A DNA stretch of 64,000 bases, taken from contig JACKFO010000002.1 of the NCBI GenBank assembly GCA_020632415.1, forward strand, positions 711,918 through 775,917, in the 5' to 3' direction. The translations under genes were made by a program, and so were the position numbers. Within the stretch, counting starts at the first letter, position 1; every line of letters starts with the position of its first letter. Origin of the DNA: Candidatus Nomurabacteria bacterium. GTDB lineage: Bacteria; Patescibacteriota; Patescibacteriia; UBA1558; GWA2-36-10. The notes beneath the pieces are model-generated. The model had not been told where the DNA came from and did not search any database. It worked only from the letters and a program-made list of their open reading frames with translations. This document shows, piece after piece, positions 5,208 through 21,507 of this stretch.

Positions 5208-6635
5208 ATGTCTACGGCAAACAAAATTTTTTCCAACACAGTTTGGCAGATGGTTATTCGAGCTGTAAGTGTTTTGATTGGAGTTTTAAATTTGGCTTTA
5301 ATTACTCGTATTTTGGGAACAACAAATTTTGGTTTTTACACCACAATTTTTGCTTTTGTTCAGACTTTTATGATTTTTGCCGATCTTGGTTTGTATCTAA
5401 CTTTACTAAGAGAGGTTTCCGAAGCCAAAGATTGTAAGCAAGAATCAAGGGTAGTTAATAATATTTTTACAATTAGATTTTTTGCCTCATTATTTTTTTT
5501 AGGGCTCGCTCCTCTTTTGGTTTATTTTTTGCCTTATGACCAGGAAGTCAAAACACACATCACTTATTTCTTACTAGCCTTCTTTTTTCAAAGTTTAGTC
5601 TCAACTCTTTCTGCTGTCTTTGCTAAAAAACTAGAAATGCCAAAAGTAGCAATCGCTGATTTGGCCAATAAAGTAGTTTATTTTTTTGTTTTACTTTATT
5701 TATTTTTTGAATTTGGTAATTTAAAGCAGGTTTTATCTTGGCACTCAGCTACGCAAGCTTTTGGTTTTGTGATTTTGTTTTTCTTTTTAAGAAAACACGT
5801 ACATTTAAATTTTGCTTGGGATTTTAAATATTGGAAAAAAGTATTGATCGCCACTTGGCCACTAGCTTTGACCGTTGTTTTGAACCTGGTTTATTTTAAG
5901 GCAGACACTTTGATTTTATCCGCTTTTGCTAGCCCAGAAGACGTTGGTTTGTACGGCGCTCCTTATCGAATTTTAGAGGTTTTGGTGACTTTTCCGCACA
6001 TGTTTATGAGTTTGATCTTACCTTTATTTACAGCGGCTTATTTGACTGATAATTTAGGCAGACTAAAGGAAATTTGGCAAAATGTTCTTAATTTTTTTAT
6101 AGTTTTATCAGGAGCAATGCTTTTGGGGACTTGGCTGATCAGTAAACCCTTGATGATTTTATTAGCTGGATCGGACTTTGCTATTTCTGGACAAATTTTA
6201 AATATTTTAATTATTGCCACAGTAGCAATTTTTTTCGGCACCCTCTTTACTTACTTGGTTGTGGCGATTGCCGCTCAAAAAGAAATGGTCAAATATTTTT
6301 TGCTAGCCGCCATTTTTGGTTTGCTGGGCTATTTTCTTTTTATTCCATCTTTTGGCTATTGGGCCGCAGCTTGGATGACGGTTTTTGTAGAATTTTTGAT
6401 TGCCTTTTTTGCTTATTTAGTTTTAAGGAAACATCTTAAATTAAAAAGTGATTTAAATGTTTTATATAAAACTGCTGAAGCTTTTTTGCTAGCTTTTGCT
6501 TTTGGCTATTTGATTAGGAGTTGGCATTTTATTTTGGTCTTTGTTCTTTCTTTAACGGTTTACGCCTTGAGTTTATATTTATTAAAAGCTGTTGATTATA
6601 AAACCATTCAACAATTATTTAACAAGTCAGAATAA
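5208..6635 (+). CDS. Polysaccharide biosynthesis protein / oligosaccharide flippase (Wzx/MurJ-like MOP superfamily)
   Basis: 475 aa with about 12-14 TM helices; composition and topology are typical of the Polysacc_synt family. Confidence 0.6.
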   Translation: MSTANKIFSNTVWQMVIRAVSVLIGVLNLALITRILGTTNFGFYTTIFAFVQTFMIFADLGLYLTLLREVSEAKDCKQESRVVNNIFTIRFFASLFFLGLAPLLVYFLPYDQEVKTHITYFLLAFFFQSLVSTLSAVFAKKLEMPKVAIADLANKVVYFFVLLYLFFEFGNLKQVLSWHSATQAFGFVILFFFLRKHVHLNFAWDFKYWKKVLIATWPLALTVVLNLVYFKADTLILSAFASPEDVGLYGAPYRILEVLVTFPHMFMSLILPLFTAAYLTDNLGRLKEIWQNVLNFFIVLSGAMLLGTWLISKPLMILLAGSDFAISGQILNILIIATVAIFFGTLFTYLVVAIAAQKEMVKYFLLAAIFGLLGYFLFIPSFGYWAAAWMTVFVEFLIAFFAYLVLRKHLKLKSDLNVLYKTAEAFLLAFAFGYLIRSWHFILVFVLSLTVYALSLYLLKAVDYKTIQQLFNKSE

Positions 6636-7915
6636 TGTTAGAAATTTTAGCCATTTTTTTAGCCTTTTGTTTTGGAGCGCTAGCTTATCATAATTTGCTA
6701 AAAGCTTTAGCTCTATTGATTTTTTTATTGCCAAGCTACTTGTGGCGTTTAAGTTTTTTTGGCTTGCCCTCTAGCTTTTTAGAGTTATTAATTTTGGCTT
6801 TATTTTTGATTTTTTTAATTAAAGATCAAAACTGGCGTAAATTTAATTTTTTTCAGGCAAAGGAAAATTTGCTAAGTAAAAAATGGCAAGCTTTATTATT
6901 TTTGTGGCTATTGGCAAGTTTGTTTGCTTTGTTTGTTAATTTTAATTTTTCTAGCCTTGGTTTGTGGCGCGCTTATTTTTTGGAGCCGATGATGGTTTTT
7001 TTAGTTTTTATTTACGCTATCAATAAAGAAAAAGATTTAAAATTAATTTATTTATCCTTTTCTGCTTTATTATTTAGCCTTTTTGCTATTGCTCTATTTC
7101 AAGCTTTGACAGCTTGGAATTTACCGGCAGCTTATGACTTTCCTAATCCTAGAAGATTGACTACACTTTTTTCTTACCCCAATGCCCTGGCTCTATTTGT
7201 TGCTCCACTTGCTATTTTTTTATTGAGCTTAGCAAAAATAGTTCAAAATCAAAAAGAGAGAATTATTTATTTCATTTCAGCAATAATGGGTTTTTTATTG
7301 CTTATATTTGCTAGAAGTGAAGGGGCAATTTTAGCTTTAGTTATTGCTTTGTTTATTTTTATTTTTAAAAAATTAAGAAAAAATTTAGAACGGGCGATAA
7401 TATTTGCAGCCTCGGCATTTGTCTTATTTTTTACACCACTAAAAGTTTATTTTTACAAAATTTTTGGTGATTTACTTTGGCCAAACTCAGAATATTTTAC
7501 TAGTTCTTTGGCTGTACGTGGTTTGCAATGGCAGGAAACTTTTGCTCTGTTGCATGACCATTGGTTTTTTGGCGCAGGGATAAATGGCTATCAAAAAATG
7601 ATGGCAATTTACCATCAAATTACTTGGCTAGAAATCTTTTTGTACCCACATAATATCTTTTTAAATTTTTGGGTAGAATTAGGCCTCTTCGGCTTATTAA
7701 TTTTTATTGGTTTATTATTTTTTATTTTTAAAACTTGCTGGCAGTTAATTAAAAATCAAAATATTTTAGCCTGGCCCTTGACTTTAGCCTGGTTAACTAT
7801 TTTAATTCATGGTTTAGTTGATGTGCCTTATTTTAAAAATGATCTTAGTGTTTTATTTTTTATTTTTTTGGCTTTACTGATTATCGCGCAGAAGCAAGGC
7901 AAGGCTCAAGGCTAA
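6635..7915 (+). CDS. O-antigen ligase/polymerase-like (Wzy_C) membrane protein
   Basis: Multi-TM protein with a periplasmic-loop motif LHDHWFFGAGINGYQ and a later LTILIHGLVDVPYF. Confidence 0.55.
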   Translation: MLEILAIFLAFCFGALAYHNLLKALALLIFLLPSYLWRLSFFGLPSSFLELLILALFLIFLIKDQNWRKFNFFQAKENLLSKKWQALLFLWLLASLFALFVNFNFSSLGLWRAYFLEPMMVFLVFIYAINKEKDLKLIYLSFSALLFSLFAIALFQALTAWNLPAAYDFPNPRRLTTLFSYPNALALFVAPLAIFLLSLAKIVQNQKERIIYFISAIMGFLLLIFARSEGAILALVIALFIFIFKKLRKNLERAIIFAASAFVLFFTPLKVYFYKIFGDLLWPNSEYFTSSLAVRGLQWQETFALLHDHWFFGAGINGYQKMMAIYHQITWLEIFLYPHNIFLNFWVELGLFGLLIFIGLLFFIFKTCWQLIKNQNILAWPLTLAWLTILIHGLVDVPYFKNDLSVLFFIFLALLIIAQKQGKAQG

Positions 7916-9280
7916 ATAAACAATAATTAAAACGTGAAATAAGGCAGAGACAGTCAGATTTAATAAAAGCAAAGCTAGCAAAGAACTAAAAAGGCCTAAG
8001 TAAGCAGGTTCTTTTTTTATTTTTTGCCAAACTTTTTTTGTGAGCAAAAAGAAAAAGGTCAAAAAACTCAAAACACCAAAAATTCCCCATTTGATCCAGA
8101 TTTCAAAATAACCCCAATCAAAATAGCGTGTATTTTGTAAATTTCCTTGAGCATTGATCAGTTCCAGATTTTGTCCTAGGCCAGAGCCAAGCACAGGATT
8201 TTCCTTGATTAATTTTTTAATGGGTTTTAATAGCTCTAAACGATTAGTAGCACTTTGATCAGAGCTTGGTTCTTGCAAGCCATTGAGTCGTAGACCCAAA
8301 ATTGCTAAACCAGAGTCTTGTCCTTGGCTGGAAGCTAAATTTAGACCAACAAACAAACAGATAAAAATTAAAAGATTATAGAAAGCCAGTTTTAAGCAAG
8401 GTTTAAATTTGTCTCGAGAGAACAAAAATAAAAAACCAAAAATTAAACTTAAGAAATAAGCTCGAGAAACATTCAAGGCTAAAATTAGGTTTAAGAAAAC
8501 CAAAATTAAAAAATAAATTTTTTCTTTTTTGATTAAATAAAAGTTAGCTGCCAAAAAGAAGAAGGGAATGATTAAGATTTGTTCTGGAAAAACTACGCGC
8601 CAATAAAAAGGCGTGACTAGAGTAATTTTGGCCAAAGCAAAATCACGTAGCCAATTATAATAGGCTTGGTGAATAATCGTCGTTTCACTGACGAATAAAA
8701 AGAAATTTAGTAAAGCCCAGACAGCGCTACTTAATAAAAAAGCAATGATTAAATTTTTGAGGAAGGTTTTATTTTTTTCTGGTTTTAAAAATTCACTTGC
8801 TGGAATAAATAAAATTAAAAAAGCAAAAGGAATCAAATCTTGGTAAATATATTTTAGTTCATGACCAGCTTTGATTCCTAAAAAGGTGGCTAAAAATAAA
8901 AAGCAATAAAAAGTAATTAGAGAAAATAATATTTTTTTATCTATTTTAAAATTTTTGTATTTTTTATAAAATAAAAATTCGCTTAAATACAAAATTAAAA
9001 AAATAAGAGTCAGAGAGGTACGAAGGGAGAGACCGGAAAATTCAAAAAAATGTCCGGCGCCACCTAATAAATATTCACTAAGCAAAATCAACCAGGCTAA
9101 ATTTTTATTTTTTAAATAAATTAAAATAAAACCCAAGAGTAATAAAAAACTCAAAGTATTTGCTAGCAAAGAATGATTGATAAAAGCAAAAGAAAGTCCG
9201 CGGAGCAAAAAAAACCCCAGACTCAGTGATAAAATTTGTAGCCAAGAGATATTGGCTTTTGAGGTAGAAAATGATAACAT
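7874..9280 (-). CDS. O-antigen ligase/polymerase-like (Wzy_C) membrane protein, paralog
   Basis: Multi-TM protein with the motif NRLELLKPIKKLIKENPVLGSGLGQ. It is convergent with the previous gene and the 3' ends overlap by 42 bp. Confidence 0.5.
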   Translation of the reverse strand: MLSFSTSKANISWLQILSLSLGFFLLRGLSFAFINHSLLANTLSFLLLLGFILIYLKNKNLAWLILLSEYLLGGAGHFFEFSGLSLRTSLTLIFLILYLSEFLFYKKYKNFKIDKKILFSLITFYCFLFLATFLGIKAGHELKYIYQDLIPFAFLILFIPASEFLKPEKNKTFLKNLIIAFLLSSAVWALLNFFLFVSETTIIHQAYYNWLRDFALAKITLVTPFYWRVVFPEQILIIPFFFLAANFYLIKKEKIYFLILVFLNLILALNVSRAYFLSLIFGFLFLFSRDKFKPCLKLAFYNLLIFICLFVGLNLASSQGQDSGLAILGLRLNGLQEPSSDQSATNRLELLKPIKKLIKENPVLGSGLGQNLELINAQGNLQNTRYFDWGYFEIWIKWGIFGVLSFLTFFFLLTKKVWQKIKKEPAYLGLFSSLLALLLLNLTVSALFHVLIIVYLALSLALLLRDNQ

Positions 9281-9346
9281 AAGACTAGCTTATTTTAGCA
9301 TTTATTTGTGAATAAGGTAATATATTGGATTGTTTATTAAAAAGAC

Positions 9347-9589
9347 ATGGTTTTTGAGCAGGATTTTTTAGAACAAGCAGAGAGAAGAAGACAAGAAGAG
9401 ACCTTGTTTAATGAAAGAATTGGGGAGTTTAGCCCGGAAGATTTGGAATTAGATGATTCAAGTGCTCCTGATAATAGTGGAAATTATACCAAGTTTGATG
9501 AAAAAATAAGAAAAGTTTTTCCAGAAATTTCGGAAGATAGATTTCCTGCTATCAAAGCAGCTGTAACTATGCATCTTTGTGGTTTTTAG
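9347..9589 (+). CDS. Hypothetical small acidic protein
   Basis: ORF only; no recognisable motif. Confidence 0.25.
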   Translation: MVFEQDFLEQAERRRQEETLFNERIGEFSPEDLELDDSSAPDNSGNYTKFDEKIRKVFPEISEDRFPAIKAAVTMHLCGF

Positions 9590-9604
9590 ATTTATCAATT
9601 ACAC

Positions 9605-9692
9605 GGAGGCGTGCTAGAGTGGTTGAATAGGGCACTCTCGAAAAGTGTTGTCTCGCAAGGGACCGAAGGTTCGAATCCTTCCGCCTCCGCCA
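9605..9692 (+). tRNA. tRNA-Ser (anticodon CGA), type II with a long variable arm and encoded CCA
   Basis: Acceptor ggaggcg/cgcctcc, anticodon loop ctCGAaa, variable stem gtctc/gggac, T-arm gaagg-ttcgaat-ccttc. Confidence 0.8.
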
Positions 9693-9720
9693 ATGAGAAT
9701 TTATCATTAAATAAAAATAT

Positions 9721-10119
9721 ATGAAGGGATTTTTTGCAAACATCGAACAAGACACTCAAGATAATGATAATTTTCGCAAGGTTTTGTATACCGGAAAAAA
9801 TAGTCAGTTAGTTTTGATGTCTTTAAAACCAAAAGAAGAAATTGGAATGGAGATTCATGCTGAAAATGACCAGTTTTTTCGATTTGAAAAAGGAGTAGGT
9901 AAGTGTATTATCGATGGCAATGAGTACGAGCTTAAAGATGGCGTGGCGGTTGTTGTTCCGGCTGGAGCAGAGCACAACATTATCAATACTTCAGAAACTG
10001 AAAGCTTAAAATTATACACTATTTATTCACCGGCTCACCACAAAGATCAGATTGTGAGAGCTAGCAAAGAAGAAGCTGAGGCCAATGAAGAAGATTTTGA
10101 TGGACAGACTACGGAGTAA
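9721..10119 (+). CDS. Cupin domain protein
   Basis: Cupin-2-like motif VVPAGAEHNIINTSE with a beta-barrel sized core and an acidic tail. Confidence 0.55.
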   Translation: MKGFFANIEQDTQDNDNFRKVLYTGKNSQLVLMSLKPKEEIGMEIHAENDQFFRFEKGVGKCIIDGNEYELKDGVAVVVPAGAEHNIINTSETESLKLYTIYSPAHHKDQIVRASKEEAEANEEDFDGQTTE

Positions 10120-10140
10120 TTTTTAAAAAAAGCTTAAAAA

Positions 10141-10169
10141 GAAGCGAGTGTTTACTTGCTTCTTTTTTT
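10141..10169 (+). terminator. Rho-independent terminator after the cupin gene
   Basis: Stem gaagcgagt/acttgcttc (one G-U pair), loop gttt, then TTTTTTT. Confidence 0.55.
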
Positions 10170-10190
10170 GTTAAAGTTTAATATTTTAAT

Positions 10191-10703
10191 ATGCGTAAAA
10201 ATAAAATTAAAGTTGTTGTTAACGACAAAATGCAGAAAAAATATGTTTATTACTTAACTGAAGAGGAGGGTAAGAATTTTGATCCAGAATTTAAGCCAGA
10301 ATTAAGTCCACGAGAAATGTTGCGTCTAGGAGTATTTGGTGGAAAGTATCTATCAGATTGTCAAAAAGAATTTCCAGCTGCTTGGTTTAAAGATGTTCGT
10401 TTTTCAGAAAAATATCATCAAGCAGATTTAAATTTTTTTAAAGTCAATGCTTCTCAGTCTCTTTCGGTTTGGCAAAAAAATGGCTGGATTCATCCAGACG
10501 ATCCGCGCGGTTGGTTTCAGTGGTATTGTCGTTATTATCAAGGAAGGCGTCACCCTGATGATCAAAGACAAATCAAAAGATGGAAGGCCATCAGAAGGCA
10601 TATTGGGCAAGTTAAAAAAAATTGTTATTCTGGAGACCTAGCTTGTCGTCGAAAACAGCGGCAAGCAATTTTGCATTGGGCTTATGATTCAAGAAAGATT
10701 TAA
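10191..10703 (+). CDS. Conserved hypothetical protein (Trp/Arg-rich motif)
   Basis: ORF with the distinctive block GWIHPDDPRGWFQWYCRYYQGRRHPDDQRQIKRW. I could not assign a family. Confidence 0.4.
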   Translation: MRKNKIKVVVNDKMQKKYVYYLTEEEGKNFDPEFKPELSPREMLRLGVFGGKYLSDCQKEFPAAWFKDVRFSEKYHQADLNFFKVNASQSLSVWQKNGWIHPDDPRGWFQWYCRYYQGRRHPDDQRQIKRWKAIRRHIGQVKKNCYSGDLACRRKQRQAILHWAYDSRKI

Positions 10704-10730
10704 TTTTTTGTTTACGAAAAAAGCTATTTT

Positions 10731-10739: not shown

Positions 10740-10745
10740 ATAGTT

Positions 10746-11606
10746 ATGAAAAAAATTCGTAAAGCAGTAATTGCTGTAGCTGGGTCTGGAACAAGGTTGT
10801 TGCCAGCTACCAAGTCTATGCCCAAAGAAATGTTGCCGGTTGTCGATAAGCCGATCATTCAATTAGTAGTCGAAGAGTTGGTTGCCGGAGGAATTGAAGA
10901 TATTATTTTGGTAACAAAATGGGACAAAAAGCCACTTGAAGATCATTTTGATCATTCTTGGGCCTTGGAGCACGATTTAGCAGAAAGCGGTAAAAAAGAA
11001 AAATTAGCCGAAATGAAAAGAATTTCAGAGATGGCTAATTTTATTTATGTCCGCCAGAAAGGACCATATGGTAATGGAACCCCAGTGTTATCAGCAGCTA
11101 GTTTAGTTCAAGACGAAGCATTTATGTATGTTTGGGGTGATGACTTGGTAAGATCAAAAGTTCCTTTTGCCAAGCAGATGATTGATGATTATCAAAAAAC
11201 AGGACATTTAATGATTGGTGTTCAGAAAGTTCCTCGTAACCAAGTTGATCGTTATGGAATTGTTAGTCTCAAAGATAAAAAAACAATGCAGTTAAATGGC
11301 ATTATTGAAAAACCAGAGATTAAATCTGCTCCTTCTCAGTTGGCAGATTTTGGACGAATGATTTTAAATCAAGAAATTGTCGATATTCTTAAAAAAACTA
11401 AACTTGGAAAAGGAAATGAACTTTGGATTGTTGACGCTATTCGTGATTACATCCAGGCCGGAGGAGAGTTTTATGCCAAGGAAGTAAAAGATGGCGAATG
11501 GCTCACCACCGGAGATCCTTGGAACTTGTTGAGAGCAAATTTAGAATACGCTCTTGAAAGAAAAGATTTAAAACAAGCTTTAAAAAAATATTTAAAAAAT
11601 ATTTAA
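10746..11606 (+). CDS. galU: UTP--glucose-1-phosphate uridylyltransferase
   Basis: Signature AVIAVAGSGTRLLPATKSMPKEMLPVVDKPIIQ. Confidence 0.85.
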   Translation: MKKIRKAVIAVAGSGTRLLPATKSMPKEMLPVVDKPIIQLVVEELVAGGIEDIILVTKWDKKPLEDHFDHSWALEHDLAESGKKEKLAEMKRISEMANFIYVRQKGPYGNGTPVLSAASLVQDEAFMYVWGDDLVRSKVPFAKQMIDDYQKTGHLMIGVQKVPRNQVDRYGIVSLKDKKTMQLNGIIEKPEIKSAPSQLADFGRMILNQEIVDILKKTKLGKGNELWIVDAIRDYIQAGGEFYAKEVKDGEWLTTGDPWNLLRANLEYALERKDLKQALKKYLKNI

Positions 11607-11608: not shown

Positions 11609-12973
11609 ATGAAAAGATTGCGTTTTTCTATTTTGATTATTTTGGCGATTTTTATAATCACCACTGGTTTTGGTTGTAAACAAAATATTATCAATCAAGC
11701 CCAGTTTGAACCGGTTGCTTTAGAATATTGGGGAGTTTGGGACACTCCGGAACAAATGCAAAAAATTATTGACGCTTATCAAGCTACTCACCCTACGATT
11801 AAAGTTAAATATCGCAATTTTCGTTATGATGAGTATGAACAAAAATTATTAGAAGCTGCTTGGGAAGATCGGGTACCGGATATTTTTATGATTCCGGCTA
11901 CTTGGCTCAAAAAATATCAAGACCGACTTTATCCAATGCCAGCGACAGTCAAGATTCCAGTCAAAGAAGTGCAAGGAACAATCAAACCAGAAGAGGTAAC
12001 AACCTTGAAGACTATCAATAGTTTAAGTAAGCAAGATGTCAAAGATCAATTTGTACAAGTTGTTTATGATGATGTGATTTTGGATGATCAGATTTACGGC
12101 CTGCCTTACTCAGTAGACACTTTAGTTACTTTTTATAATTTAGATTTATTAACTCAGAGTGGAATTCCTGAACCAATGGTAGATTTTCATGATTTAGTAG
12201 AGCATGTTCAGCAATATAAGTTATCAAAAATAGGGGCAGCTAATCAAGTTTTACAAGCAGGAGTTGCTTTGGGGACTGCTGATAATATTCCCCGTTTTTT
12301 CGATATTTTATCAAGCATCATGCTTCAAAATCAAGTCGAAGTTAAAGGAAAAAATTTCAGTCCACTACAAAGCAAAAGTTCAGCTACTAATTTAGCAGAA
12401 GTGTTTAATTTTTATACTGACTTTGCTGATCCGACCAAAGCAATTTATTCATGGAACGATGATCTGCCGAATGCCTTTGAAATGTTTACGCAAGGAAAGT
12501 TGGCTTATTTTTTTGGCTATAGTTATCATGCTGATGAATTACGCAAAAGAGGCGTTCAGTTTGATTGGGAGATTACTAATTTTCCAAAGACCAGAGGCTC
12601 AGAAGGAAGCGTCTATTATTCTAACTACTGGGTAAATGTAGTTCCGCAAAAATCAAAAAATAAGGATGCTGCTTGGAATTTTATTCAGAGCACAGTCAAT
12701 AAAAATATCGTGACAAATTATCTTAGTCCAAATAAAAAACCAACGGCCTTAAGATCTTTGATCAATGGCCAATTACAAGATGAAGATATTCGAATTTTCG
12801 CCTCACAAGTATTGACGGCTGATAATTGGTACGATGGTTATGATATTGATTTAGCTGAAAAATATACTGCGGATTTTATTAATTCTGTTTTAGCTGGAGA
12901 AATAGAAATAGACAATGAGGGTCTGGCATTTTTTGTCAGTCGAATCAATCAAACTTATAAAAAACAAGAATAA
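11609..12973 (+). CDS. ABC transporter extracellular solute-binding lipoprotein (family 1, sugar-type)
   Basis: Lipobox TTGFGC after the signal peptide; SBP-like length and composition. Confidence 0.55.
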   Translation: MKRLRFSILIILAIFIITTGFGCKQNIINQAQFEPVALEYWGVWDTPEQMQKIIDAYQATHPTIKVKYRNFRYDEYEQKLLEAAWEDRVPDIFMIPATWLKKYQDRLYPMPATVKIPVKEVQGTIKPEEVTTLKTINSLSKQDVKDQFVQVVYDDVILDDQIYGLPYSVDTLVTFYNLDLLTQSGIPEPMVDFHDLVEHVQQYKLSKIGAANQVLQAGVALGTADNIPRFFDILSSIMLQNQVEVKGKNFSPLQSKSSATNLAEVFNFYTDFADPTKAIYSWNDDLPNAFEMFTQGKLAYFFGYSYHADELRKRGVQFDWEITNFPKTRGSEGSVYYSNYWVNVVPQKSKNKDAAWNFIQSTVNKNIVTNYLSPNKKPTALRSLINGQLQDEDIRIFASQVLTADNWYDGYDIDLAEKYTADFINSVLAGEIEIDNEGLAFFVSRINQTYKKQE

Positions 12974-14262: not shown

Positions 14263-14342
14263 AGTTGATTGAAAAAAAACGTTCTTTGGTTTATAATGTA
14301 GCTATAATTATTAAAATATTTTAAATGAAAGGGGGTGGAAAA

Positions 14343-14690
14343 ATGAAAAAAATTTTGACAGCTTTATTACTAGTCGCTCCAATGATGGTTTCTGCTCAAG
14401 ATAATTTTGGTATTGATGATTTGACCAACACCGGTTTAGGTACTCGTGGTTTAAAATCAACAATTGCTCAATTACTTAACGTAGTTTTAAGTTTCTTAGG
14501 CATTATCGCCGTTTTAATCATCTTGTTAGGTGGTTTTAAATGGATGACTTCACAAGGCTCATCTGATAAAGTAGACGAAGCTAAAAAACTTATCGGCGCT
14601 GGCGTCGTTGGTTTAATCATCATCTTAGCTGCTTACGCTATTGTGCGTTTTGTCTTAACTGAGGTTTACTCTGCGACAACCGAGGCATAG
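14343..14690 (+). CDS. VirB2/TrbC-like pilin family protein (duplicate A)
   Basis: SD aaggggg lies 8 nt upstream of the ATG at 14343. The ORF-track start at 14325 merely translates the SD. Core LLGGFKWMTSQGSSDKVDEAKKLI. Confidence 0.55.
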   Translation: MKKILTALLLVAPMMVSAQDNFGIDDLTNTGLGTRGLKSTIAQLLNVVLSFLGIIAVLIILLGGFKWMTSQGSSDKVDEAKKLIGAGVVGLIIILAAYAIVRFVLTEVYSATTEA

Positions 14691-14797
14691 AGGCAGGGTA
14701 AGATGGGCTATTATAGTCTAGACTATAGTAGGCCAAAACTTGGCCTACTAAAGCGTAGATTATAAAAAATTGTTTTATAATGAAAGGGGGTGGAAAA

Positions 14798-15139
14798 ATG
14801 AAAAAAATTTTGACAGCTTTATTGCTAGTTGCTCCAATGGCCGCTTCTGCTCAAGCCAACTTTGGTATTAATGATTTAAATGGTACTGGTTTAGGTACCG
14901 CTGGTTTGAAGACAACAATCGGATCATTGCTTAATGTTGCTTTAAGTTTCTTAGGCATTATCGCCGTTTTAATCATCTTGTTAGGTGGTTTTAAATGGAT
15001 GACTTCACAAGGCTCATCTGATAAAGTAGACGAAGCTAAAAAACTTATCGGCGCTGGCGTCGTTGGTTTAATCATCATCTTAGCCGCTTACGCTATTGTT
15101 CGTTTCGTCTTAACCGAAGTTTATAACGCTACAACGTAG
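14798..15139 (+). CDS. VirB2/TrbC-like pilin family protein (duplicate B)
   Basis: The C-terminal half is near-identical to duplicate A at nucleotide level, while the N-terminal mature region has diverged. Same SD context. Confidence 0.55.
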   Translation: MKKILTALLLVAPMAASAQANFGINDLNGTGLGTAGLKTTIGSLLNVALSFLGIIAVLIILLGGFKWMTSQGSSDKVDEAKKLIGAGVVGLIIILAAYAIVRFVLTEVYNATT

Positions 15140-15226: not shown

Positions 15227-15601
15227 ATGTATAAATTACTTTTTGCTTTTTTATTGTTAATGCCATTTCATTTTGCTTCAGCTTTGACCGCTGAAGAAGG
15301 CTTACGTAGCGCTGCTGAAGGTACTGGTTTGAGCATTGAAAAAAAGATTCCAGATTATATTGGAATGTTAATTCGCGGTGCTCTTGGTTTACTGGCTGCT
15401 ATTTTTTTGGTTTTGATTGTTTTGGCCGGATTTAAGTGGATGACCTCTGCTGGTAATTCTCAGAAGATAGAGAGCGCTAAAGAAACAATTCTTAACTCGG
15501 TTATTGGTTTGGTGATCGTTTTGGTTTCCTATGCGATTGTTGAGTTTGTTTTAAGAGCAATGAAAGGGGCAACTAATGCAGGTGGAGTAATTACGCAATA
15601 A
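15227..15601 (+). CDS. VirB2/TrbC-like pilin family protein
   Basis: Core VLAGFKWMTSAGNSQKIESAKETILNSVIGLVIVLVSYAIVEFV. Confidence 0.55.
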   Translation: MYKLLFAFLLLMPFHFASALTAEEGLRSAAEGTGLSIEKKIPDYIGMLIRGALGLLAAIFLVLIVLAGFKWMTSAGNSQKIESAKETILNSVIGLVIVLVSYAIVEFVLRAMKGATNAGGVITQ

Positions 15602-15616: not shown

Positions 15617-15653
15617 AGCCCTCTCGCAAGCTGATGCTGCGAGAGGGCTTTTG
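15617..15653. terminator. Bidirectional rho-independent terminator between convergent genes
   Basis: 12-bp stem agccctctcgca/tgcgagagggct flanked by T/A runs on both strands. Confidence 0.65.
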
Positions 15654-15668: not shown

Positions 15669-16280
15669 TCAGCGGAGCTCGACGTACCAGTCGACTGGCT
15701 TACCATTGAATTCCACCTTGTGACGATCGTCACGAATCGTCACCTTGGTGTAGTGGTTTTCTCCACGCGAAGTTTTCCAGTGAATGGTCATGGGGCCTGG
15801 GCTCAGGTAAAGCGCCTGACTAGCTTGACCGACTTCCAAGTGACCAACATTGCTGTAGCCACGGTAGGATACGATGTCAATTGGCTCTCGATAAGTATTG
15901 ATGAAGTAGCCTTCCAGTCGAGGCATGTTGTTTAGCAGGAAATCGTCTAGCTTAATTTCCTGAATTCCAGACCAGCGTCCGGTTCGCTGAATTGTGATCG
16001 CTTGTTCGTCTGAATATTGATCGATTTCGAGCCAGTACTTGACTCTCAGTCGAAGCTGGTCTTGGCGCGGCGTTTGAAAGCTGTGGCTTTGACCGGGCAG
16101 TAATTCAACGTAGGAGTTTCCCGAAGCTTCGGCCACGCTGAACATTACTCGCTCTCTGTCAGCTACGACTTTCCACTGACAAAACTCTTCGTTGTAATTC
16201 ATGCCACCATGGTAAGTGGCGCAGCCGGTCAGGAAGGCGACAAAGAGGATTGTCAGCCAGAGCAGTTTGTTGATCTTCAT
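15669..16280 (-). CDS. Hypothetical lipoprotein in a GC-rich island
   Basis: Signal peptide MKINKLLWLTILFVAFLTGC with lipobox. SD aggaaaag precedes the ATG at 16280. Local GC is about 50% against about 30% in the flanks. Confidence 0.55.
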   Translation of the reverse strand: MKINKLLWLTILFVAFLTGCATYHGGMNYNEEFCQWKVVADRERVMFSVAEASGNSYVELLPGQSHSFQTPRQDQLRLRVKYWLEIDQYSDEQAITIQRTGRWSGIQEIKLDDFLLNNMPRLEGYFINTYREPIDIVSYRGYSNVGHLEVGQASQALYLSPGPMTIHWKTSRGENHYTKVTIRDDRHKVEFNGKPVDWYVELR

Positions 16281-16392
16281 GGTCTTTTCCTTCTGCTTGT
16301 TTGATTGTCCAAGGTTCAAATCATTATATTATACTCTATTTTATCTATTTTGTCAATACACTTCGTCTTTTTGCATATGCTATAATTTAGCT

Positions 16393-18243
16393 ATGATTTT
16401 TTGGTCTAAAATGGGCTTATTTTTGGAAAAACACAGCAAGAAGCTATTAGTTCTGGCTATTGTCTTTTTTGCTCTATTTCTCGCCTTTTTGAGCCTCAGA
16501 AAGCTTGATTACTTTGCTTACAATGCCTTTGATTTGAGTATTTTTAATCAAGTTTTTTATAACACTCTGCATGGTCGTTGGTTTGAGATGACGATCAATC
16601 TTAATAGCTATTTAGCCGATCATTTTACACCAATCATTATTTTGTTTTTACCTTTTTATGCGCTGTGGCCCAAGGCCGAAGGATTGTTAATTTTGCAGTC
16701 TTTTATTTTAGCCTTTTCGGCTTGGCCGATTTACTTGATTAGCCGGCATGTTTTGGCTAACAAAAAAATTTCTTTTTTCATTGCCCTAGCTTGGCTATTC
16801 AATCCTTTTGTTCATAGCGCTCATTTTTATGAATTTCATCTATTGCCAATCGCAGTTTTATTTATTTTTTGGGCTTTTTATTTTTATCAAAAAGAAAAAT
16901 TTAAATATTTTATTTTATTTTTCATTTTAAGTTTATTAGTTAGAGAAGATGTTGCTTTGATTTTGTTAGGCTTCCCTTTTTTGGCTATTTTGGAACAGAG
17001 AAAAAAATTTTGGGTTATTCCAAGTTTGGTTTTGGCGCTATGTTATTTCTTTTTAAGTTTAAAAATTATTGGTCATTTTGATCCCAGCGGTTCTTATAAA
17101 TTTTTTATTTATTATTCTTGGCTAGGCGGACATAGTTTGGGCGAAATTATTTTTTCTTTTTTAATCCATCCTTTAAAAGTTTTACAACATATTTTTAGTT
17201 TGCAAAATATGTTTAATTTGGCAATAATTTTTTGGCCATTTTTATTTTTTCCATTTTTAAAACCAAAGTATTTTATCTTTTTTCTTTTACCATTGTTACA
17301 AATCATTATGACTGGTGGAGGATTTTCTTCAATGGTTTATCAGAGTCATTATATTTTATTTTTTTTACCTGGCTTATTTTTTGCTTTTATTTTTTCTTTT
17401 CAAAAAATCATTAAATTTAAGAATAAAAGTTTTATTTATTTACTCTTGTTTGTGACTGTAATTTATTTAGATTTATTTTTATCACCAGTTAAACAAGTTT
17501 TTCTTTATCCAAAACAGGAGAGCTTTATTACAGCAAAACAAGAAATGATCAAAACACTTGGCAGCGACAAAACATTGGCAGTGAGCGCTTCTTTTTTGCC
17601 GGCCTTAAGCACTAGAGAAAAAATTTACGCAGTTAATTATAGCTATTTTGCCAAAAGTCAGTTTGCTAAAAAAGATTTTATTTTACCAGATGTAGATTAT
17701 ATTTTGCTTGATTATAGCGACTTTATTGCTGATTTGCTAGAAAAGGAAACTAACAATCTTTTAGCTAGTCAAAGACCAAAGATGAATGATCGCTGGAAAG
17801 CCTTACTAGATAATTATCATTTAGAAAAAATAGATCATGATTTATTTTTATTCAGTAAAAAAACAGCAGAGGATCAAGAAAAATATCGGTTATTAGATTT
17901 CATTGAGCGTCCTGACAATCTACCAAATAAACTGATCTTAAATCAAGAATATATAGTAGATAAAGATGTTTTGAGCTTGGAGTTTAATCCTGATTTTTTT
18001 GCCGAAAATTATTTGATTCGTTTTTATGCTCAAGATTTTTTTTATGATTTACCGCTTGACTATGCTCTGATTTCCAAGGCTTTTCTAGACAAGCAGAAAG
18101 TGATTAAATTAAATTATTATCTCAGCTCAGAAATAAAAGCTTATCAGGTATTTTCTTGGAGCGGAGAAAACAAATTAGGATTGATTGGCGAGGTTGTTCC
18201 AGATTTGCAAATAAAAACTCTAAACGAAAAAATAAGCCTATGA
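16393..18243 (+). CDS. DUF2079-like polytopic membrane protein (putative envelope glycan-modifying enzyme)
   Basis: N-terminal motif AYNAFDLSIFNQVFYNT and many TM helices. TATAAT at 16381-16386 lies 6 nt before the ATG. The longer ORF from 16216 overlaps the convergent lipoprotein and was rejected. Confidence 0.5.
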   Translation: MIFWSKMGLFLEKHSKKLLVLAIVFFALFLAFLSLRKLDYFAYNAFDLSIFNQVFYNTLHGRWFEMTINLNSYLADHFTPIIILFLPFYALWPKAEGLLILQSFILAFSAWPIYLISRHVLANKKISFFIALAWLFNPFVHSAHFYEFHLLPIAVLFIFWAFYFYQKEKFKYFILFFILSLLVREDVALILLGFPFLAILEQRKKFWVIPSLVLALCYFFLSLKIIGHFDPSGSYKFFIYYSWLGGHSLGEIIFSFLIHPLKVLQHIFSLQNMFNLAIIFWPFLFFPFLKPKYFIFFLLPLLQIIMTGGGFSSMVYQSHYILFFLPGLFFAFIFSFQKIIKFKNKSFIYLLLFVTVIYLDLFLSPVKQVFLYPKQESFITAKQEMIKTLGSDKTLAVSASFLPALSTREKIYAVNYSYFAKSQFAKKDFILPDVDYILLDYSDFIADLLEKETNNLLASQRPKMNDRWKALLDNYHLEKIDHDLFLFSKKTAEDQEKYRLLDFIERPDNLPNKLILNQEYIVDKDVLSLEFNPDFFAENYLIRFYAQDFFYDLPLDYALISKAFLDKQKVIKLNYYLSSEIKAYQVFSWSGENKLGLIGEVVPDLQIKTLNEKISL

Positions 18244-19976
18244 CAAGTAATTTTAATTTTTTAAAAAAAGTTTTTGCAGCCAATATTTTTATTGTGTGTT
18301 TTTTTGGTTATTTAAGTCTTTATTTTTTGCTTTATCAGGGTAATTATTTTTTCTTTTTTGATCTTTTAAAAATAATCGCGATTTTATTTTTGTTTTTAGT
18401 GGGGGCCATCTTTGTCCCCCAAAGACACATCAAATATCTAGCCGCGCTATTAGCAGGGTTTTTTGTTTTAGATTTTGCTTTGCTTTTGTTTCATTTATTG
18501 CGACATGCATCTTTTAATTGGTTTTACTTTTGGTACAATCGACAAGAAGCTTGGCAGACCATTGATTTAGTTTTTCAGGGTGCGTGGTGGTATTTGTTGG
18601 CAGCTTTATTTTTTATTTTTACTTTTTTTTATTTTATTAAGCATTTGTTTGTGTTTTTTAAAAATAAGTTTAAGCTAAAGAGTGAAAAATATTTTTTTCT
18701 ATTTTTAGTGATACTGCTGCTGAGCCTTTCTTTTATCTCTACAAACAATCTTGAGCTGGTCAAAGTTATCAAGGAGGCATTTAGTAGTAATTCCGAGATT
18801 GTTAATCTGTATCAAGACTATTATCAAAAAATAATCAAAGATTATACTGTCAAGAATCAGAGAATTTTAGATAATTCAATCTTGAATTCGGAAGCTAATA
18901 TTTTTTTCTTGCATTTAGAAAGTTTAAATGGTGAATTTTTAAGTTCAGAAATTACGCCAAATTTTCAAGGGTTAGAAAACAAGGGCCTGGTTTTTAAAAA
19001 CATGCAGACCAACAATGTTCAGACAATTCGTGGTGAAGAAAATATCCTTTGCCCGGTTTTAGCCTCTATTGACCAAGACTTGCATCGCTCTGGCTTGAGC
19101 TCCCAGGCTCTTTGTTTGCCAAAAGTTTTAAAATCATTGGGCTACAAAACAATTTTTTTTAAAAGTCATGATTTATCTTTTGCGGACACCGGTGAATTTA
19201 TGAAAAACATCGGCTTTGATGAGGTTCATAGCTCAGATATCATGTCTCCAGAAGATCAAGAGTTGGCTTGGGGCTATCGAGAGGATCTTTTTTATCAAAG
19301 AGTTTTAGAGTATTTAAAGCAATATCAAGATCAAAAGATTTTTGCTTATATTGCTGTCAGCACCACTAATCACGTGCCTTTTGTTTTGGGTCAGAATTAT
19401 CAAGATTTAAATCTACAATTGCCATCCACTGGAGATAGTTTTTTGGCGCGTCTAAAAAATACTACTTTTGTTCAAGATTATTTTTTTGGAAACTTTTTAG
19501 AGCGATGGCAAGAAAAATATCAAAGCAATTCTCACCTTTTTGCTTTTGGTGATCAGGCTTGGCCAGTTGGCAAGCATGATAATTATTACAATGAAGCCTA
19601 TGCTTATCAAGAGAATTTTTTGTCCAGCTTGGCTGTGTTATCTCCAGAATTAAAAACTTTTGGCTTAAAAGAAAATTATCTTAGTCAAAATGATATTTTT
19701 CTTAGTATTTTGTCATTGCTTGGCCTAGATAGTTTTCAAAGTCCTGGCAAAAATATTTTTACTACAGATAATAAATGTATTATTGCTGTGCAGCCTTATT
19801 CGCGTCGTTATATCACGGCGATTAATTATCCAGAAAAATATATTTATAATATTTTAGATAATATTTTAGAAATTTATAATTTAGCAGATGATCCAGCAGA
19901 AAAAAATCCACTGTTTGTTGGAACAGCAGACGATTTGTCTTATTTAGAAAATTGTTTAGAAAATATCGCTAATTAA
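18240..19976 (+). CDS. LtaS/MdoB-like membrane-anchored sulfatase (alkaline phosphatase superfamily, phosphoglycerol-transferase-like)
   Basis: N-terminal TM helices plus a C-terminal sulfatase-like domain. Its start overlaps the upstream stop by 4 nt (ATGA), indicating translational coupling. Confidence 0.55.
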   Translation: MTSNFNFLKKVFAANIFIVCFFGYLSLYFLLYQGNYFFFFDLLKIIAILFLFLVGAIFVPQRHIKYLAALLAGFFVLDFALLLFHLLRHASFNWFYFWYNRQEAWQTIDLVFQGAWWYLLAALFFIFTFFYFIKHLFVFFKNKFKLKSEKYFFLFLVILLLSLSFISTNNLELVKVIKEAFSSNSEIVNLYQDYYQKIIKDYTVKNQRILDNSILNSEANIFFLHLESLNGEFLSSEITPNFQGLENKGLVFKNMQTNNVQTIRGEENILCPVLASIDQDLHRSGLSSQALCLPKVLKSLGYKTIFFKSHDLSFADTGEFMKNIGFDEVHSSDIMSPEDQELAWGYREDLFYQRVLEYLKQYQDQKIFAYIAVSTTNHVPFVLGQNYQDLNLQLPSTGDSFLARLKNTTFVQDYFFGNFLERWQEKYQSNSHLFAFGDQAWPVGKHDNYYNEAYAYQENFLSSLAVLSPELKTFGLKENYLSQNDIFLSILSLLGLDSFQSPGKNIFTTDNKCIIAVQPYSRRYITAINYPEKYIYNILDNILEIYNLADDPAEKNPLFVGTADDLSYLENCLENIAN

Positions 19977-21507
19977 TTTGATAAATTTCGACTTCCTGAT
20001 CTTCATAAACTAAAGAAATGTTTTGGTCAGCGACTAAAGCATTTTTTAATTCTTCTTTTTTATTTTCTTTTTCTAATAAAATATAATTACTATGAAATTT
20101 TTCTTTGATTGTCGTAGCCAAGTCATCGGTCTCTTGGCCAGAGCCCAAATCTAAATACAATTGATGTAGATCAAGGCTGTAATTATGCATAAAGGTTGGA
20201 TCCAGGCCAATGAGATAATAATTTTTTTGGTTGTGATAAAAAAGCATCGGCCACTGATCCCAGTCATCGTGAAAAACAATGCTTTGTTCTGGAGTATTAT
20301 TTTTAAGCCAAGCACTTGCAGCAGCAAATCTGTCGAAAGCTAGTCTTTGTGGCAGATTAAAAGTAAGCGCTTTGTTCAAAATCAAAGGGATGACCACGAT
20401 CAGCAAAATGCTCAAACTGATCGCAGTGTATGTTTTTAAATAAATATTTAATTTAAGCCAAAAATTTTTAATATTTTGGCGATTAAAAATACTTTTTAGA
20501 TCATTGGCGGCAAAGCTCACAAAAAGCAACAAGAAAGGTAAAAAATATTCAATATAACGACTAGATTTGATCGTTAATAACAAAAAACCAAAGCTTAACA
20601 AAAGACTAAAAGTTGTTTTTTGTGTTAATTTTTGGTAATTAAAGACCAATAAGATGATAAAAAGCCAACTTAAGATAAATAAATGTGGAGCAGAAGATAA
20701 GATTTTGAAAAAACTTGCCCCATACCATTCTCCGCCAACAGCAAACTGATTGCCAAGATTGATTAGTCCGATTTGGATCACTTGCTGCCAATAGAAATAA
20801 AGATTTTCTGGCCAATAAGGATGAGAAATTAGTCCAGCTAATATTCCTCCTAGGCTCCAGATTATTTTTTGCCAATGATAATGTATTTTGACTGAACTTA
20901 TTTTATTGTTGAGCCAAATACTGACAAAATAAGCCAAGAGGATTGGGAAAATAATTGGCCAGCCACCATAAAGCCAAACAAATAACCAGCTCAAAGCAAA
21001 GAGTAATTTATTTTTATTTTTTAAGAGAGCATAAATAAAAAATAAGCAAAGAATAAAGCTCAAAGAATTTGTTTTGATCAAGCTCCAGCGGAAGTTTAAA
21101 TTTGGCAGGGTCAGAATCAAGAGGCTAAAAAGCCAGGCAAAGGTTATGTTTAGTTTTTTTAGAAGCCAATAGAAGCTCAAAACTGCTAAAGTAGCAAATA
21201 AAACAGCAGCAATTTTGACGCCCCACAAAGGATCAGAAAATCTGACAAAAGGAATGAGAAAAATATGATACAAAAAGTGATGATCAGTAAAATTTTCAGC
21301 CAAAGTGCTGAATTGCATCCAAGGTAGTGCGTGTAAGATCTTTCCTTGGCCTAAAATTTGAGCTATTTTAGCATGATAAAAGCCATCAGGGTCACCGATG
21401 ACGGGATTTTTTTGCCAAAGCCAATAAAAGCTCAAAAAAATAAAAAACAAAGACCAGTAGTCAAATCGCCAGGCTTGAATTTTATTTTTTAGGGAGTCTG
21501 ATTTCAT
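19969..21507 (-). CDS. GT-C-like polytopic membrane glycosyltransferase candidate (ArnT/PMT-like)
   Basis: 512 aa, more than 10 TM helices, and a first-loop acidic motif GDPDGFYHAKIAQ. On the minus strand TGCTACAAT lies 9 nt upstream of the ATG. Confidence 0.4.
   Translation of the reverse strand: MKSDSLKNKIQAWRFDYWSLFFIFLSFYWLWQKNPVIGDPDGFYHAKIAQILGQGKILHALPWMQFSTLAENFTDHHFLYHIFLIPFVRFSDPLWGVKIAAVLFATLAVLSFYWLLKKLNITFAWLFSLLILTLPNLNFRWSLIKTNSLSFILCLFFIYALLKNKNKLLFALSWLFVWLYGGWPIIFPILLAYFVSIWLNNKISSVKIHYHWQKIIWSLGGILAGLISHPYWPENLYFYWQQVIQIGLINLGNQFAVGGEWYGASFFKILSSAPHLFILSWLFIILLVFNYQKLTQKTTFSLLLSFGFLLLTIKSSRYIEYFLPFLLLFVSFAANDLKSIFNRQNIKNFWLKLNIYLKTYTAISLSILLIVVIPLILNKALTFNLPQRLAFDRFAAASAWLKNNTPEQSIVFHDDWDQWPMLFYHNQKNYYLIGLDPTFMHNYSLDLHQLYLDLGSGQETDDLATTIKEKFHSNYILLEKENKKEELKNALVADQNISLVYEDQEVEIYQIN

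Follow-up and report, generated by a model that had tools for sequence, protein, structure and literature searches.

The DNA segment presented above raises the question of whether a run of envelope genes between recA and yebC-ruvC encodes one pathway for a cell-surface glycan or whether its members simply share a neighborhood. The segment is a 64,000-nucleotide (nt) stretch of low-GC chromosome (GC content, ~31 to 44%) from Candidatus Nomurabacteria, in the Parcubacteria group of Patescibacteria, and three of its proteins are 100% identical to NCBI entries from such a bacterium; we refer to this whole stretch as the window and number positions from its first letter. An earlier note, made from the letters alone, had described positions 5208 to 21507 as a large envelope-glycan locus. 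We mapped the open reading frames (ORFs) over the window and scanned them against families at Pfam gathering scores and NCBIfam cut-offs. Each gene that the note had named was present in this region, and its domain guesses for a Wzx-type flippase, GalU, a sugar-binding protein, a DUF2079-like protein, an LtaS-like protein, and a cupin agree with the Pfam and NCBIfam matches. We consider it somewhat probable (roughly 0.55) that the recA-to-yebC/ruvC region is a conserved Parcubacteria chromosomal block that builds a surface glycoconjugate at the outer side of the cytoplasmic membrane and that it consists of three separable modules. The gene content, the folds, the conserved catalytic-type residues, the gene order, and the coupling of the genes were established.

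Conservation and modularity of the block

We compared the window with related loci. Four of these (L005, L006, L007, and L012) are the neighborhoods of homologs of WzyC1, the ligase-like protein of the block, at 44 to 50% identity, and the L012 protein is labelled Komeilibacteria. Synteny with two others (L002 and L003) was assessed from ORF lists and pairwise BLASTP. The four WzyC1 neighborhoods share one order: rpoB, rpoC, ftsK, an HTH_25 gene, recA, the gene of the flippase Wzx, wzyC1, galU, the gene of a solute-binding protein (SBP), a VirB2-like fusion gene, and three VirB2-like genes, with a minus-strand gene of 217 to 256 amino acids (aa) lying 3' of this pilin array. A DUF2079 gene comes next in L005, L006, and L012 and is absent in L007, while a sulfatase-fold gene is found on the opposite strand in L006 and L012 and is absent in L005 and L007. 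All four have a minus-strand gene at the position where the window encodes a 512-aa protein of the glycosyltransferase C (GT-C) fold, and homology to the 512-aa family is established for L005 and L007. The right flank was seen as yebC in L005 and L007 and as ruvC and glgA in L007; the retrieved DNA ends earlier in the other loci.

Overlaps or short spacers couple the genes inside modules (Wzx-WzyC1, galU-SBP-pilin fusion, and DUF2079-sulfatase), and stop/start overlaps recur in the relatives at the Wzx-WzyC1, galU-SBP, and SBP-fusion junctions. The functionally coherent set that the earlier note had proposed is in part upheld, in that the order of the block persists in Parcubacteria with 44 to 50% WzyC1 identity. 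The block is modular. In L002, where the SBP is 72% identical, the genes for Wzx, WzyC1, a second Wzy_C protein (WzyC2), GalU, the SBP, and the pilins are present, and the lipoprotein gene that follows them leads directly to yebC.

Parts of the block also occur together in other surroundings. In L011, which is arranged differently, a T4SS_pilin array is followed by a PMT gene, a YfhO gene, and an overlapping DUF2079-sulfatase pair. In L010, a remote relative of the 512-aa protein (hhalign, 93.7%) is encoded by a gene that overlaps one for a sulfatase-GDPD fusion; GT2, PMT_2-like, and GT4 genes come next. Clusters of GT2 and further GT-C genes in other lineages begin with homologs of the 512-aa protein. 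L010 and L011 tie block parts together independently of the main arrangement. Homologs of the 512-aa or the sulfatase-fold protein (36 to 39% identity) also lie beside yebC-ruvC in larger clusters (L008, L009, L013, and L014) that encode GT2 enzymes as large as typical polyprenyl-phosphate-sugar synthases, GT87/MptA-like, PTPS-related, and YfhO-like membrane proteins, methyltransferases, and a DUF2079 or sulfatase protein. The site beside yebC is therefore a variable GT-C hot spot, and the window holds a minimal version of it.

A flippase and two Wzy_C proteins

The block begins with a gene for a 475-aa Wzx-type, MOP-family flippase predicted to act on lipid-linked glycans (5208 to 6635, plus strand). 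The protein matched Polysacc_synt (PF01943) at 94.1 bits against a cut-off of 28.2 (E = 1.3e-26) and Polysacc_synt_3 at 6e-17, and it has 13 hydrophobic segments, in line with the ~12 to 14 helices of polytopic flippases. Its NCBIfam matches were weak (Wzx_EPS, the best, with 50 bits against a cut-off of 800; HfsF; Oglyco_Wzx), and it could not be assigned to any specific characterized flippase equivalog in NCBIfam. Identity with MurJ was rejected, as NCBIfam gave no MurJ match. The TAA stop of the flippase gene overlaps the ATG of wzyC1 by 1 nt, and Wzx is encoded upstream of WzyC1 in L002, L005, L006, L007, and L012 as well.

WzyC1 (6635 to 7915, plus strand; 426 aa) is encoded by a conserved core gene and is a candidate en bloc glycan transferase of the WaaL/O-antigen-ligase-like GT-C(B) type. 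It matched Wzy_C in Pfam at 65.8 bits against 31.7 (E = 4.9e-18), and 1,820 homologs were detected; among the 120 listed, all source names were those of Patescibacteria-group organisms, "bacterium," or generic. Single-sequence searches with WzyC1, WzyC2, and the 512-aa protein matched no solved structure. A profile of 30 WzyC1 sequences matched one solved structure only, the O-antigen ligase CmWaaL (7TPG; E = 5.8e-6), and this alignment places R295 of WzyC1 on CmWaaL R265 and H339 on H313, both invariant in 30/30 sequences. In the correspondence used here, Arg-265 and His-313 of CmWaaL equal R288 and H338 of EcWaaL. In CmWaaL, R191 and R265 bind undecaprenyl diphosphate and H313 activates the acceptor, whereas inverting polymerases of the same clan have Asp or Glu in place of the His and show an Arg/Arg/acidic pattern (PMC10920833).

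The second Wzy_C protein, WzyC2 (7874 to 9280, minus strand; 468 aa), is an accessory one, found in the window and L002 only and not in the four more distant relatives that carry the block. It scored 42.3 bits against 31.7 for Wzy_C (E = 8.2e-11) in Pfam, with a weak match to the repeat-unit polymerase family TIGR04370 in NCBIfam, and is distant from the WzyC1 family (hhalign probability, 82%; 21% identity). At this level of identity, the view that the two are recent ligase paralogs was rejected. R273 and R347 of WzyC2 align to both Arg sites (R273 by a two-step alignment), the YPHN segment with the His is missing, and D388 and E393 lie nearby. Because both Arg residues are kept and the His segment is missing, as in inverting polymerases, WzyC2 appears polymerase-like, and the pair would then be one ligase-like and one polymerase-like protein and not two ligases. 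The two O-antigen-ligase-like paralogs of the earlier note therefore fared unequally: both are Wzy_C proteins and WzyC1 is ligase-like, but WzyC2 appears not to be. The same is true of the catalytic Arg and His residues by which the note had proposed to judge them, since WzyC1 keeps the equivalents of R265 and H313 and not that of R191, and WzyC2 keeps both Arg and lacks the His. In the comparison with PglL/PilO-type enzymes that the note had proposed, PglL_A (PF15864) was not seen in either protein, Wzy_C being the only match at E ≤ 0.01, and membership of the PglL family was rejected.

Between the Wzy_C genes and galU lies a variable slot (9347 to 10703, plus strand) with an 80-aa ORF, a Cupin_2 protein (9721 to 10119; E = 6e-15), and a 170-aa ORF without a family. 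The slot between WzyC1 and galU holds a CMAS methyltransferase and an AAA_28 protein in L002 and a DUF6498 protein in L005, and it is empty in L006, L007, and L012. The cupin, whose match to a mannose-6-phosphate isomerase C-terminal family in Pfam was below threshold, had been put forward as a possible sugar epimerase or isomerase of the pathway; this role was rejected, as the gene is not conserved in the related loci. The 170-aa ORF that adjoins it (10191 to 10703) encodes a basic, Trp/Arg-rich protein with no Pfam or NCBIfam match.

galU, a binding protein, and a VirB2-like array

The product of the next gene (10746 to 11606, plus strand) is a GalU-like UTP-glucose-1-phosphate uridylyltransferase. 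TIGR01099 was by far the best of its 33 nucleotidyltransferase matches, with 276.4 bits (E = 2.5e-82), which is below the equivalog cut-off of 326.8, and Pfam gave NTP_transferase at 7e-30. Directly 3' of ruvC, a glycogen/alpha-glucan cluster (22956 to 29718) encodes a GT5 enzyme, a GH57 enzyme, an APH-family kinase, a second GT5 enzyme, and the galactose-1-phosphate uridylyltransferase GalT, and this cluster is kept in relatives.

After a 2-nt spacer (a 4-nt overlap in L005 and L006) follows the gene of a family 1 sugar-type SBP (11609 to 12973, plus strand) with an N-terminal signal and Cys, which make it a likely lipoprotein. It matched SBP_bac_8 (2e-25) and SBP_bac_1 (3e-21), above the cut-off, and its closest solved chains are sugar- and maltose-binding proteins. 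No permease or ATPase partner for it was found in the window or in L005, L006, L007, and L012. The SBP gene lies 8 nt from the gene of a 306-aa fusion protein in the window, and the two overlap or abut in all loci. The fusion (12982 to 13902, plus strand) joins a VirB2-like domain, with a T4SS_pilin score of 26.9 bits against 26.6 (E = 5e-6), to an extracytoplasmic C-terminal domain with 22 Cys. It is 41% identical to its L005 counterpart, the Cys-rich part included, where WzyC1 is ~50% identical. The Cys-rich domain, of ~200 aa, could be an adhesin or a tip-like module.

Four small VirB2/TrbC-like proteins follow on the plus strand (13924 to 14262, 14325 to 14690, 14780 to 15139, and 15227 to 15601; T4SS_pilin, 33 to 41 bits against 26.6). 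When tested with PF18895 and PF04956, all five T4SS_pilin proteins between 12982 and 15601, the fusion included, scored 26.9 to 40.8 bits and so at least the gathering score. Each VirB2-like protein of the array has a signal peptide and two hydrophobic helices, and the mature N-terminal segments are rich in Gly, Ser, and Thr. The adjacent copies between 14325 and 15139 (121 and 119 aa) share 90% protein identity and, over 398 nt, 86% DNA identity; this pair is a recent tandem duplication. The earlier note had called these proteins pilins. Being of the VirB2/TrbC type, they were rejected as type IV pilins, and a type IV secretion locus was rejected too, as the machinery genes are not present in the window: VirB4, VirB6, and VirD4 were not found among its large ORFs or in L005, L006, L007, and L012. 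A true type IV pilin-like protein with an N_methyl motif is encoded at 43750 to 44406 on the minus strand, ~22 kb from the block.

Convergent with the array, the minus strand carries a gene for a predicted lipoprotein of 203 aa without a Pfam match (15669 to 16280; 15669 to 16356 with its promoter). All relatives have a minus-strand gene of 203 to 256 aa in this position, and the window and L005 proteins have no detectable similarity; a conserved family was rejected for that reason. The position may be a slot for fast-evolving surface proteins.

A DUF2079 protein and a sulfatase-fold protein

On the far side of the lipoprotein gene, a 616-aa DUF2079 protein is encoded at 16393 to 18243 on the plus strand (start most likely at 16393, not at the GTG at 16216). 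It matched DUF2079 (PF09852) at 211.5 bits against 28.2 (E = 3e-62) and belongs to a family with 8,623 representative clusters at E ≤ 0.001, for which our literature search found no paper. From its family and predicted fold, it would be a membrane glycosyltransferase of the GT-C(A) fold that ends in a beta-rich domain. High-confidence models of the DUF2079 and 512-aa proteins gave match lists whose top entries were solely GT-C enzymes, and, as in GT-C class A, the GT-C membrane fold at the locus goes with an acidic residue that is conserved in the first external loop. At the level of sequence, profiles of both families retrieved nothing or noise from the solved structures, and hhalign found no relationship between the two.

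The DUF2079 stop and the next start share an ATGA overlap at 18240 to 18243, which the earlier note had pointed out and which recurs in L003. The downstream gene (18240 to 19976, plus strand; 578 aa) encodes a predicted LtaS/OpgB-like membrane phosphotransferase. It has the LtaS/OpgB architecture, with five hydrophobic segments in residues 7 to 169 and an extracytoplasmic Sulfatase-fold domain (Pfam Sulfatase, 70.8 bits, E = 1.6e-19, residues 263 to 523 of the 606-aa ORF), and NCBI names an identical protein "LTA synthase family protein" (LTA, lipoteichoic acid). The closest solved relative is the Listeria LTA primase LtaP (4UOP; ~41 bits), and NCBIfam gave weak OpgB matches (43 bits against a cut-off of 574). 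In an alignment of 19 sequences of the family, T262, H378, and D438 are present in 19/19 and E227 in 18/19. T262 aligns to the nucleophile Thr of LtaP. The LtaP alignment gives Lys and Thr in place of the glycerol-phosphate-binding His and Arg, which we take to be H347 and R356 of SaLtaS.

Of 21 homologs detected, one is fused to a GDPD glycerophosphodiesterase domain (L010, 2012 to 4465). In L011 (8001 to 10527), the homolog's gene overlaps a gene for a CDP-alcohol phosphatidyltransferase, and a phosphatidylserine decarboxylase gene is next on the opposite strand. The fusion and these phospholipid head-group neighbors are consistent with an enzyme that draws a phosphate ester from the head group of a phospholipid, and they hint at the donor lipid. 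The protein would work like LtaS or OpgB, and we do not class it as an LTA synthase.

A GT-C protein without a Pfam family

The last gene of the block (19969 to 21507, minus strand) encodes a 512-aa protein that we predict to be a Patescibacteria-specific GT-C(A) enzyme. Of its 274 detected homologs, all that carry a source name are labelled "hypothetical protein," and none contains a Pfam domain. An AlphaFold2 model from a 43-sequence alignment reached a pLDDT of 92.4. In a Foldseek search, eleven STT3 chains came first (E = 7e-10 to 1e-7), then DPY19, AglB, and PglB, with ALG12, AftD, and ArnT weaker, so that the closest fold is that of the STT3/AglB/PglB oligosaccharyltransferases, the C-terminal globular domain included. 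The model fold agrees with the earlier guess of a GT-C-like enzyme. Invariant residues of the family are D41 (of a D-x-D motif in the first external loop), E260, R317, and W416, and D39 and D417 are present in at least 90% of the sequences. The WWDYG-like segment, DWD(E/Q)W, shows only partial conservation, and the L010 homolog lacks it. A Pfam scan of 43 family members at E ≤ 1 yielded no consistent family and no STT3, with one AglB_core-like match (E = 0.12); neither Pfam nor the profile search of solved structures linked the protein to STT3 in sequence.

Transcription signals and neighboring genes

Consensus scans for sigma-70-like promoters and hairpins were the source of all transcription signals. 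The left boundary of the block is marked by an intrinsic-terminator-like hairpin 3' of recA (5146 to 5171, plus strand; an 11-bp stem with 10 GC pairs, then a T run). A promoter-like site precedes the second pilin gene (14269 to 14297; 11/12 consensus positions). Between the convergent pilin array and lipoprotein gene lies a terminator-like hairpin (15617 to 15649, scored on the minus strand; a 13-bp stem and a T run), and the lipoprotein gene has a perfect sigma-70-like promoter (16328 to 16356, minus strand; TTGACA-17-TATAAT, 12/12). These sites suggest several transcription units rather than one.

Outside the block, an HTH_25 protein with a Glucodextran_B-like C-terminal domain is encoded between ftsK and recA (3392 to 4060), and HTH_25 occurs at the same place in all relatives examined. 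A membrane H+-translocating pyrophosphatase (888 bits) is encoded at 49113 to 51146 on the minus strand, where the local GC content is 0.40 to 0.44.

A possible pathway

The donors, the sequence of steps, and the acceptor we infer from gene content and folds. In the first module, Wzx would bring a polyprenyl-diphosphate-linked glycan to the outer leaflet, and the WaaL-like WzyC1 would move it en bloc to an acceptor, the invariant Arg holding the diphosphate and the invariant His activating the acceptor. In the window genome and one relative, WzyC2 would probably polymerize the repeat unit first. The second module is predicted to be one operon that comprises GalU, for the supply of UDP-glucose, the orphan sugar-type SBP, probably a lipoprotein, the Cys-rich VirB2-like fusion, and the VirB2-like array. 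The third would be the local version of the variable GT-C hot spot at yebC. There, an LtaS/OpgB-type phosphotransferase, translationally coupled to the DUF2079 GT-C enzyme, would move a head-group phosphate ester from a membrane phospholipid; the convergent STT3-like GT-C enzyme would complete the set; and the enzymes of this module would act on the same surface acceptor or on a second one, decorating or extending it with polyprenyl-phosphate sugars as donors.

Candidate acceptors are the secreted proteins encoded alongside (the VirB2-like proteins and the binding protein) or a lipid-anchored, LTA-like polymer. Protein acceptors are suggested by folds nearest to protein-glycosylating enzymes, by the recurrent neighborhood, and by the precedent of PglL; the LtaS-like enzyme and the phospholipid enzymes encoded near it suggest a lipid-anchored polymer.

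Comparison with known systems

The block resembles the Wzx/Wzy/WaaL assembly of O antigen and capsule (CAZy GT121; 7TPG) in that a gene for a MOP flippase precedes one for a Wzy_C protein in which Arg-265 and His-313 have equivalents, and in that WzyC2 shows the Arg/Arg/acidic pattern of inverting polymerases (PMC10920833). Unlike that system, the block lacks a lipid A-core pathway, a priming transferase, and repeat-unit glycosyltransferases, and the Arg-191 equivalent of WzyC1 is not conserved. No lipopolysaccharide (LPS) genes were seen in the window. Parcubacteria are generally regarded as single-membrane, and LPS therefore cannot be assumed as the acceptor.

Like the PglL/TfpO (PilO) loci, the block encodes a Wzy_C enzyme near small secreted filament-type proteins. 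The pglL genes usually adjoin their pilin targets (21/31), and the PglL_A motif marks PglL-type enzymes (PMC3643930). The block differs in lacking PglL_A, in having VirB2-like rather than type IV pilin neighbors, in the three to four genes between the enzyme and the array, and in being known from genes alone. The 512-aa protein resembles STT3/AglB/PglB (GT66) in three features: its first external loop carries a D-x-D, a later loop contains an invariant Glu, and its C-terminal domain opens with a W-D. It has no sequence match to STT3/AglB profiles or solved chains, however, does not conserve WWDYG as such, and is 512 aa long as opposed to ~590 to 870, and the GT2 and GT87-like context of its homologs in other lineages points to polyprenyl-phosphate monosaccharide chemistry.

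The sulfatase-fold protein is like LtaS, LtaP, and OpgB in its five N-terminal hydrophobic segments, its extracytoplasmic sulfatase-fold domain, its nucleophile Thr, and its Glu and Asp metal ligands. The pairing of a sulfatase-fold enzyme with GT-C enzymes recalls LtaS/OpgB with YfhO, which is itself a neighbor in L011. The protein is unlike them in that its scores (~41 bits to LtaP, 43 to OpgB) are far under the family cut-offs, a Gln replaces a metal-site His, the glycerol-phosphate positions are not conserved, and the partner is DUF2079. The mycobacterial lipomannan/lipoarabinomannan pathway combines several GT-C enzymes dependent on polyprenyl-phosphate sugars with an orphan lipoprotein of solute-binding fold, LpqW, that has no transporter; phylum and lipid anchor differ, and this likeness is one of analogy only.

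Arrays of VirB2-like genes are themselves familiar in Patescibacteria, where 441 arrays of 2 to 11 divergent genes, with a maximum within-array identity of 54%, have been reported (bioRxiv 10.1101/2025.01.22.634366). The window array, of five genes with the fusion, is likewise a tandem of T4SS_pilin/TrbC genes on the chromosome. It departs from the reported arrays in the 90% identity of one pair, in having no VirB4, VirB6, or VirD4 gene within 64 kb, and in its place between the flippase/ligase pair and the GT-C enzymes, in a predicted operon with GalU and the SBP. A term search of that report returned no O-antigen ligase, flippase, or binding protein.

Weighing the explanations

A number of observations weigh against a single glycoconjugate pathway. 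No priming phosphoglycosyltransferase and no GT2 polyprenyl-phosphate-sugar synthase was found in the family scans of the window, and the only GT-A or GT-B enzymes were the two glycogen-type GT5. The sequence therefore does not yield a complete pathway: the window encodes only the flipping and the extracytoplasmic transfer, and the glycan must be built by enzymes encoded outside it. The earlier note's synthesis and surface ligation of a glycopolymer accordingly survives in its flippase and ligase-like genes, and its synthesis half is left without a priming or GT-A/GT-B enzyme other than the glycogen GT5. GalU could equally serve the downstream glycogen cluster. CmWaaL Arg-191 (R215 in EcWaaL) has no conserved equivalent in WzyC1: Glu, Asp, or Gln stands at the aligned position 229, and only 14/30 sequences have Arg or Lys at 227. 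In the sulfatase-fold family, residue 439, which follows D438, is His in 11/19 and Gln in 6/19 sequences, with Gln at this metal-binding His site in the clade of the window. Furthermore, the modules part company: L002 lacks the DUF2079-sulfatase-GT-C trio, L003 (78% identical) keeps galU through ruvC with the trio and has unrelated genes, and no Wzx or Wzy_C, upstream of galU, and the yebC-side clusters of L008, L009, L013, and L014 showed no pilin genes in the retrieved DNA. The conserved order also spans the housekeeping genes from rpoBC, ftsK, and recA to yebC, ruvC, and glgA, so that adjacency alone is weak evidence of shared function and the order may be generally frozen.

This last point leads to the explanation that there is no common pathway at all. 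Independent envelope genes would sit in a frozen Parcubacteria gene order, GalU and the SBP serving sugar uptake and glycogen, the VirB2-like proteins a type IV secretion system encoded elsewhere, and Wzx/WzyC1 and the GT-C enzymes separate wall polymers. We think this unlikely on balance but leave it substantial weight, because housekeeping genes belong to the same conserved order and the modules come apart in close relatives, where they have been lost or moved independently. The strong promoter- and terminator-like sites that part the pilin array, the lipoprotein gene, and the DUF2079 operon fit it, as do the glycogen cluster with GalT directly downstream and the many VirB2-like arrays already known in Patescibacteria (441; bioRxiv 10.1101/2025.01.22.634366). 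On the other hand, the tight coupling of galU, the SBP gene, and the pilin fusion is hard to square with glycogen metabolism, the SBP has no transporter partner in any locus, and the neighborhood of pilins, GT-C enzymes, and the DUF2079-sulfatase pair recurs in another arrangement in L011. Two narrower explanations accept a common product and fix the acceptor. One of them, a lipid-anchored, LTA-like or lipoglycan polymer, strikes us as rather unlikely. In this scheme a glycolipid would carry a polyol-phosphate chain built or decorated by the LtaS-like enzyme, sugars would be attached to it outside the cell by the GT-C enzymes, GalU would provide the anchor glucose, and the pilins would be mere neighbors. 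YfhO-type enzymes add sugars to LTA outside the cell, and YfhO, PMT_2, GT87-like, and GT2 genes occur in the related clusters. The LtaS architecture with its nucleophile Thr, the NCBI name, the GDPD fusion of one homolog, and the phospholipid head-group enzymes beside the L011 homolog point the same way, and LpqW offers a precedent for an orphan binding-protein-like lipoprotein in a GT-C glycolipid pathway. Yet the sulfatase-fold gene is the least conserved part of the block, with its 21 homologs and its absence from L002, L005, and L007, the glycerol-phosphate-binding His and Arg are replaced by Lys and Thr in the LtaP alignment, a metal-site His has become Gln, and the window encodes no glycolipid-anchor glycosyltransferase.

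Glycosylation of the VirB2-like subunits, with WzyC1 as an O-oligosaccharyltransferase, the STT3-like and PMT-like GT-C enzymes as protein glycosyltransferases, and the VirB2-like proteins, the Cys-rich fusion, or the SBP as targets, we regard as doubtful. In its favor, the fold of the 512-aa protein is nearest to the polypeptide-glycosylating STT3, AglB, PglB, and DPY19, pilin arrays adjoin such enzymes in two arrangements (that of the window and that of L011), the mature N-terminal segments of the VirB2-like proteins are rich in Gly, Ser, and Thr, and 21/31 pglL genes adjoin their pilin targets (PMC3643930). But a GT-C fold alone does not tell a protein acceptor from a lipid or glycan one, neither Wzy_C protein has PglL_A, there is no STT3 match in Pfam, the conservation of DWD(E/Q)W is partial and a distant homolog lacks it, the four pilins have no N-x-S/T sequon in common, and the yebC-side clusters without pilin genes in the retrieved DNA count here as well. 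A bolder form of this idea, which we hold to be improbable, would make the 512-aa family a miniature, Patescibacteria-specific offshoot of STT3/AglB/PglB that, with WzyC1 and the PMT-like DUF2079 protein, glycosylates the VirB2-like proteins encoded between them, so that the block would be a dedicated "glyco-pilus" locus that shapes the surface of an epibiont toward its hosts.

Significance

Assembly of a surface glycoconjugate, the reading that we favor, involves parts of known kinds; what is new is their conserved combination, the fold assignments, and the STT3-like family. Our literature search found no description of the combination of the block genes with an STT3-like enzyme and no paper linking oligosaccharyltransferases to Patescibacteria. 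A PNAS perspective on the group makes no mention of teichoic acid, glycosylation, or VirB2, and a 2024 study of Saccharibacteria pili calls glycosylation processes "unexplored" (PMC11623550).

Patescibacteria are thought to rely on host cells through surface contact, and their surface glycans are hardly known. The block provides a concrete, widely conserved candidate, with one flippase, one ligase-like enzyme, two or three GT-C enzymes, and one phosphotransferase around a VirB2-like array. It also allows a fold and a likely activity to be proposed, from models, for two families that had neither, DUF2079, with its thousands of members, and the Patescibacteria-specific 512-aa family; if correct, this would supply glycoengineering with new enzymes of compact size. 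Should the acceptors be the pilin-like proteins, the pilin arrays and the surface glycans of Patescibacteria would be connected through this locus.

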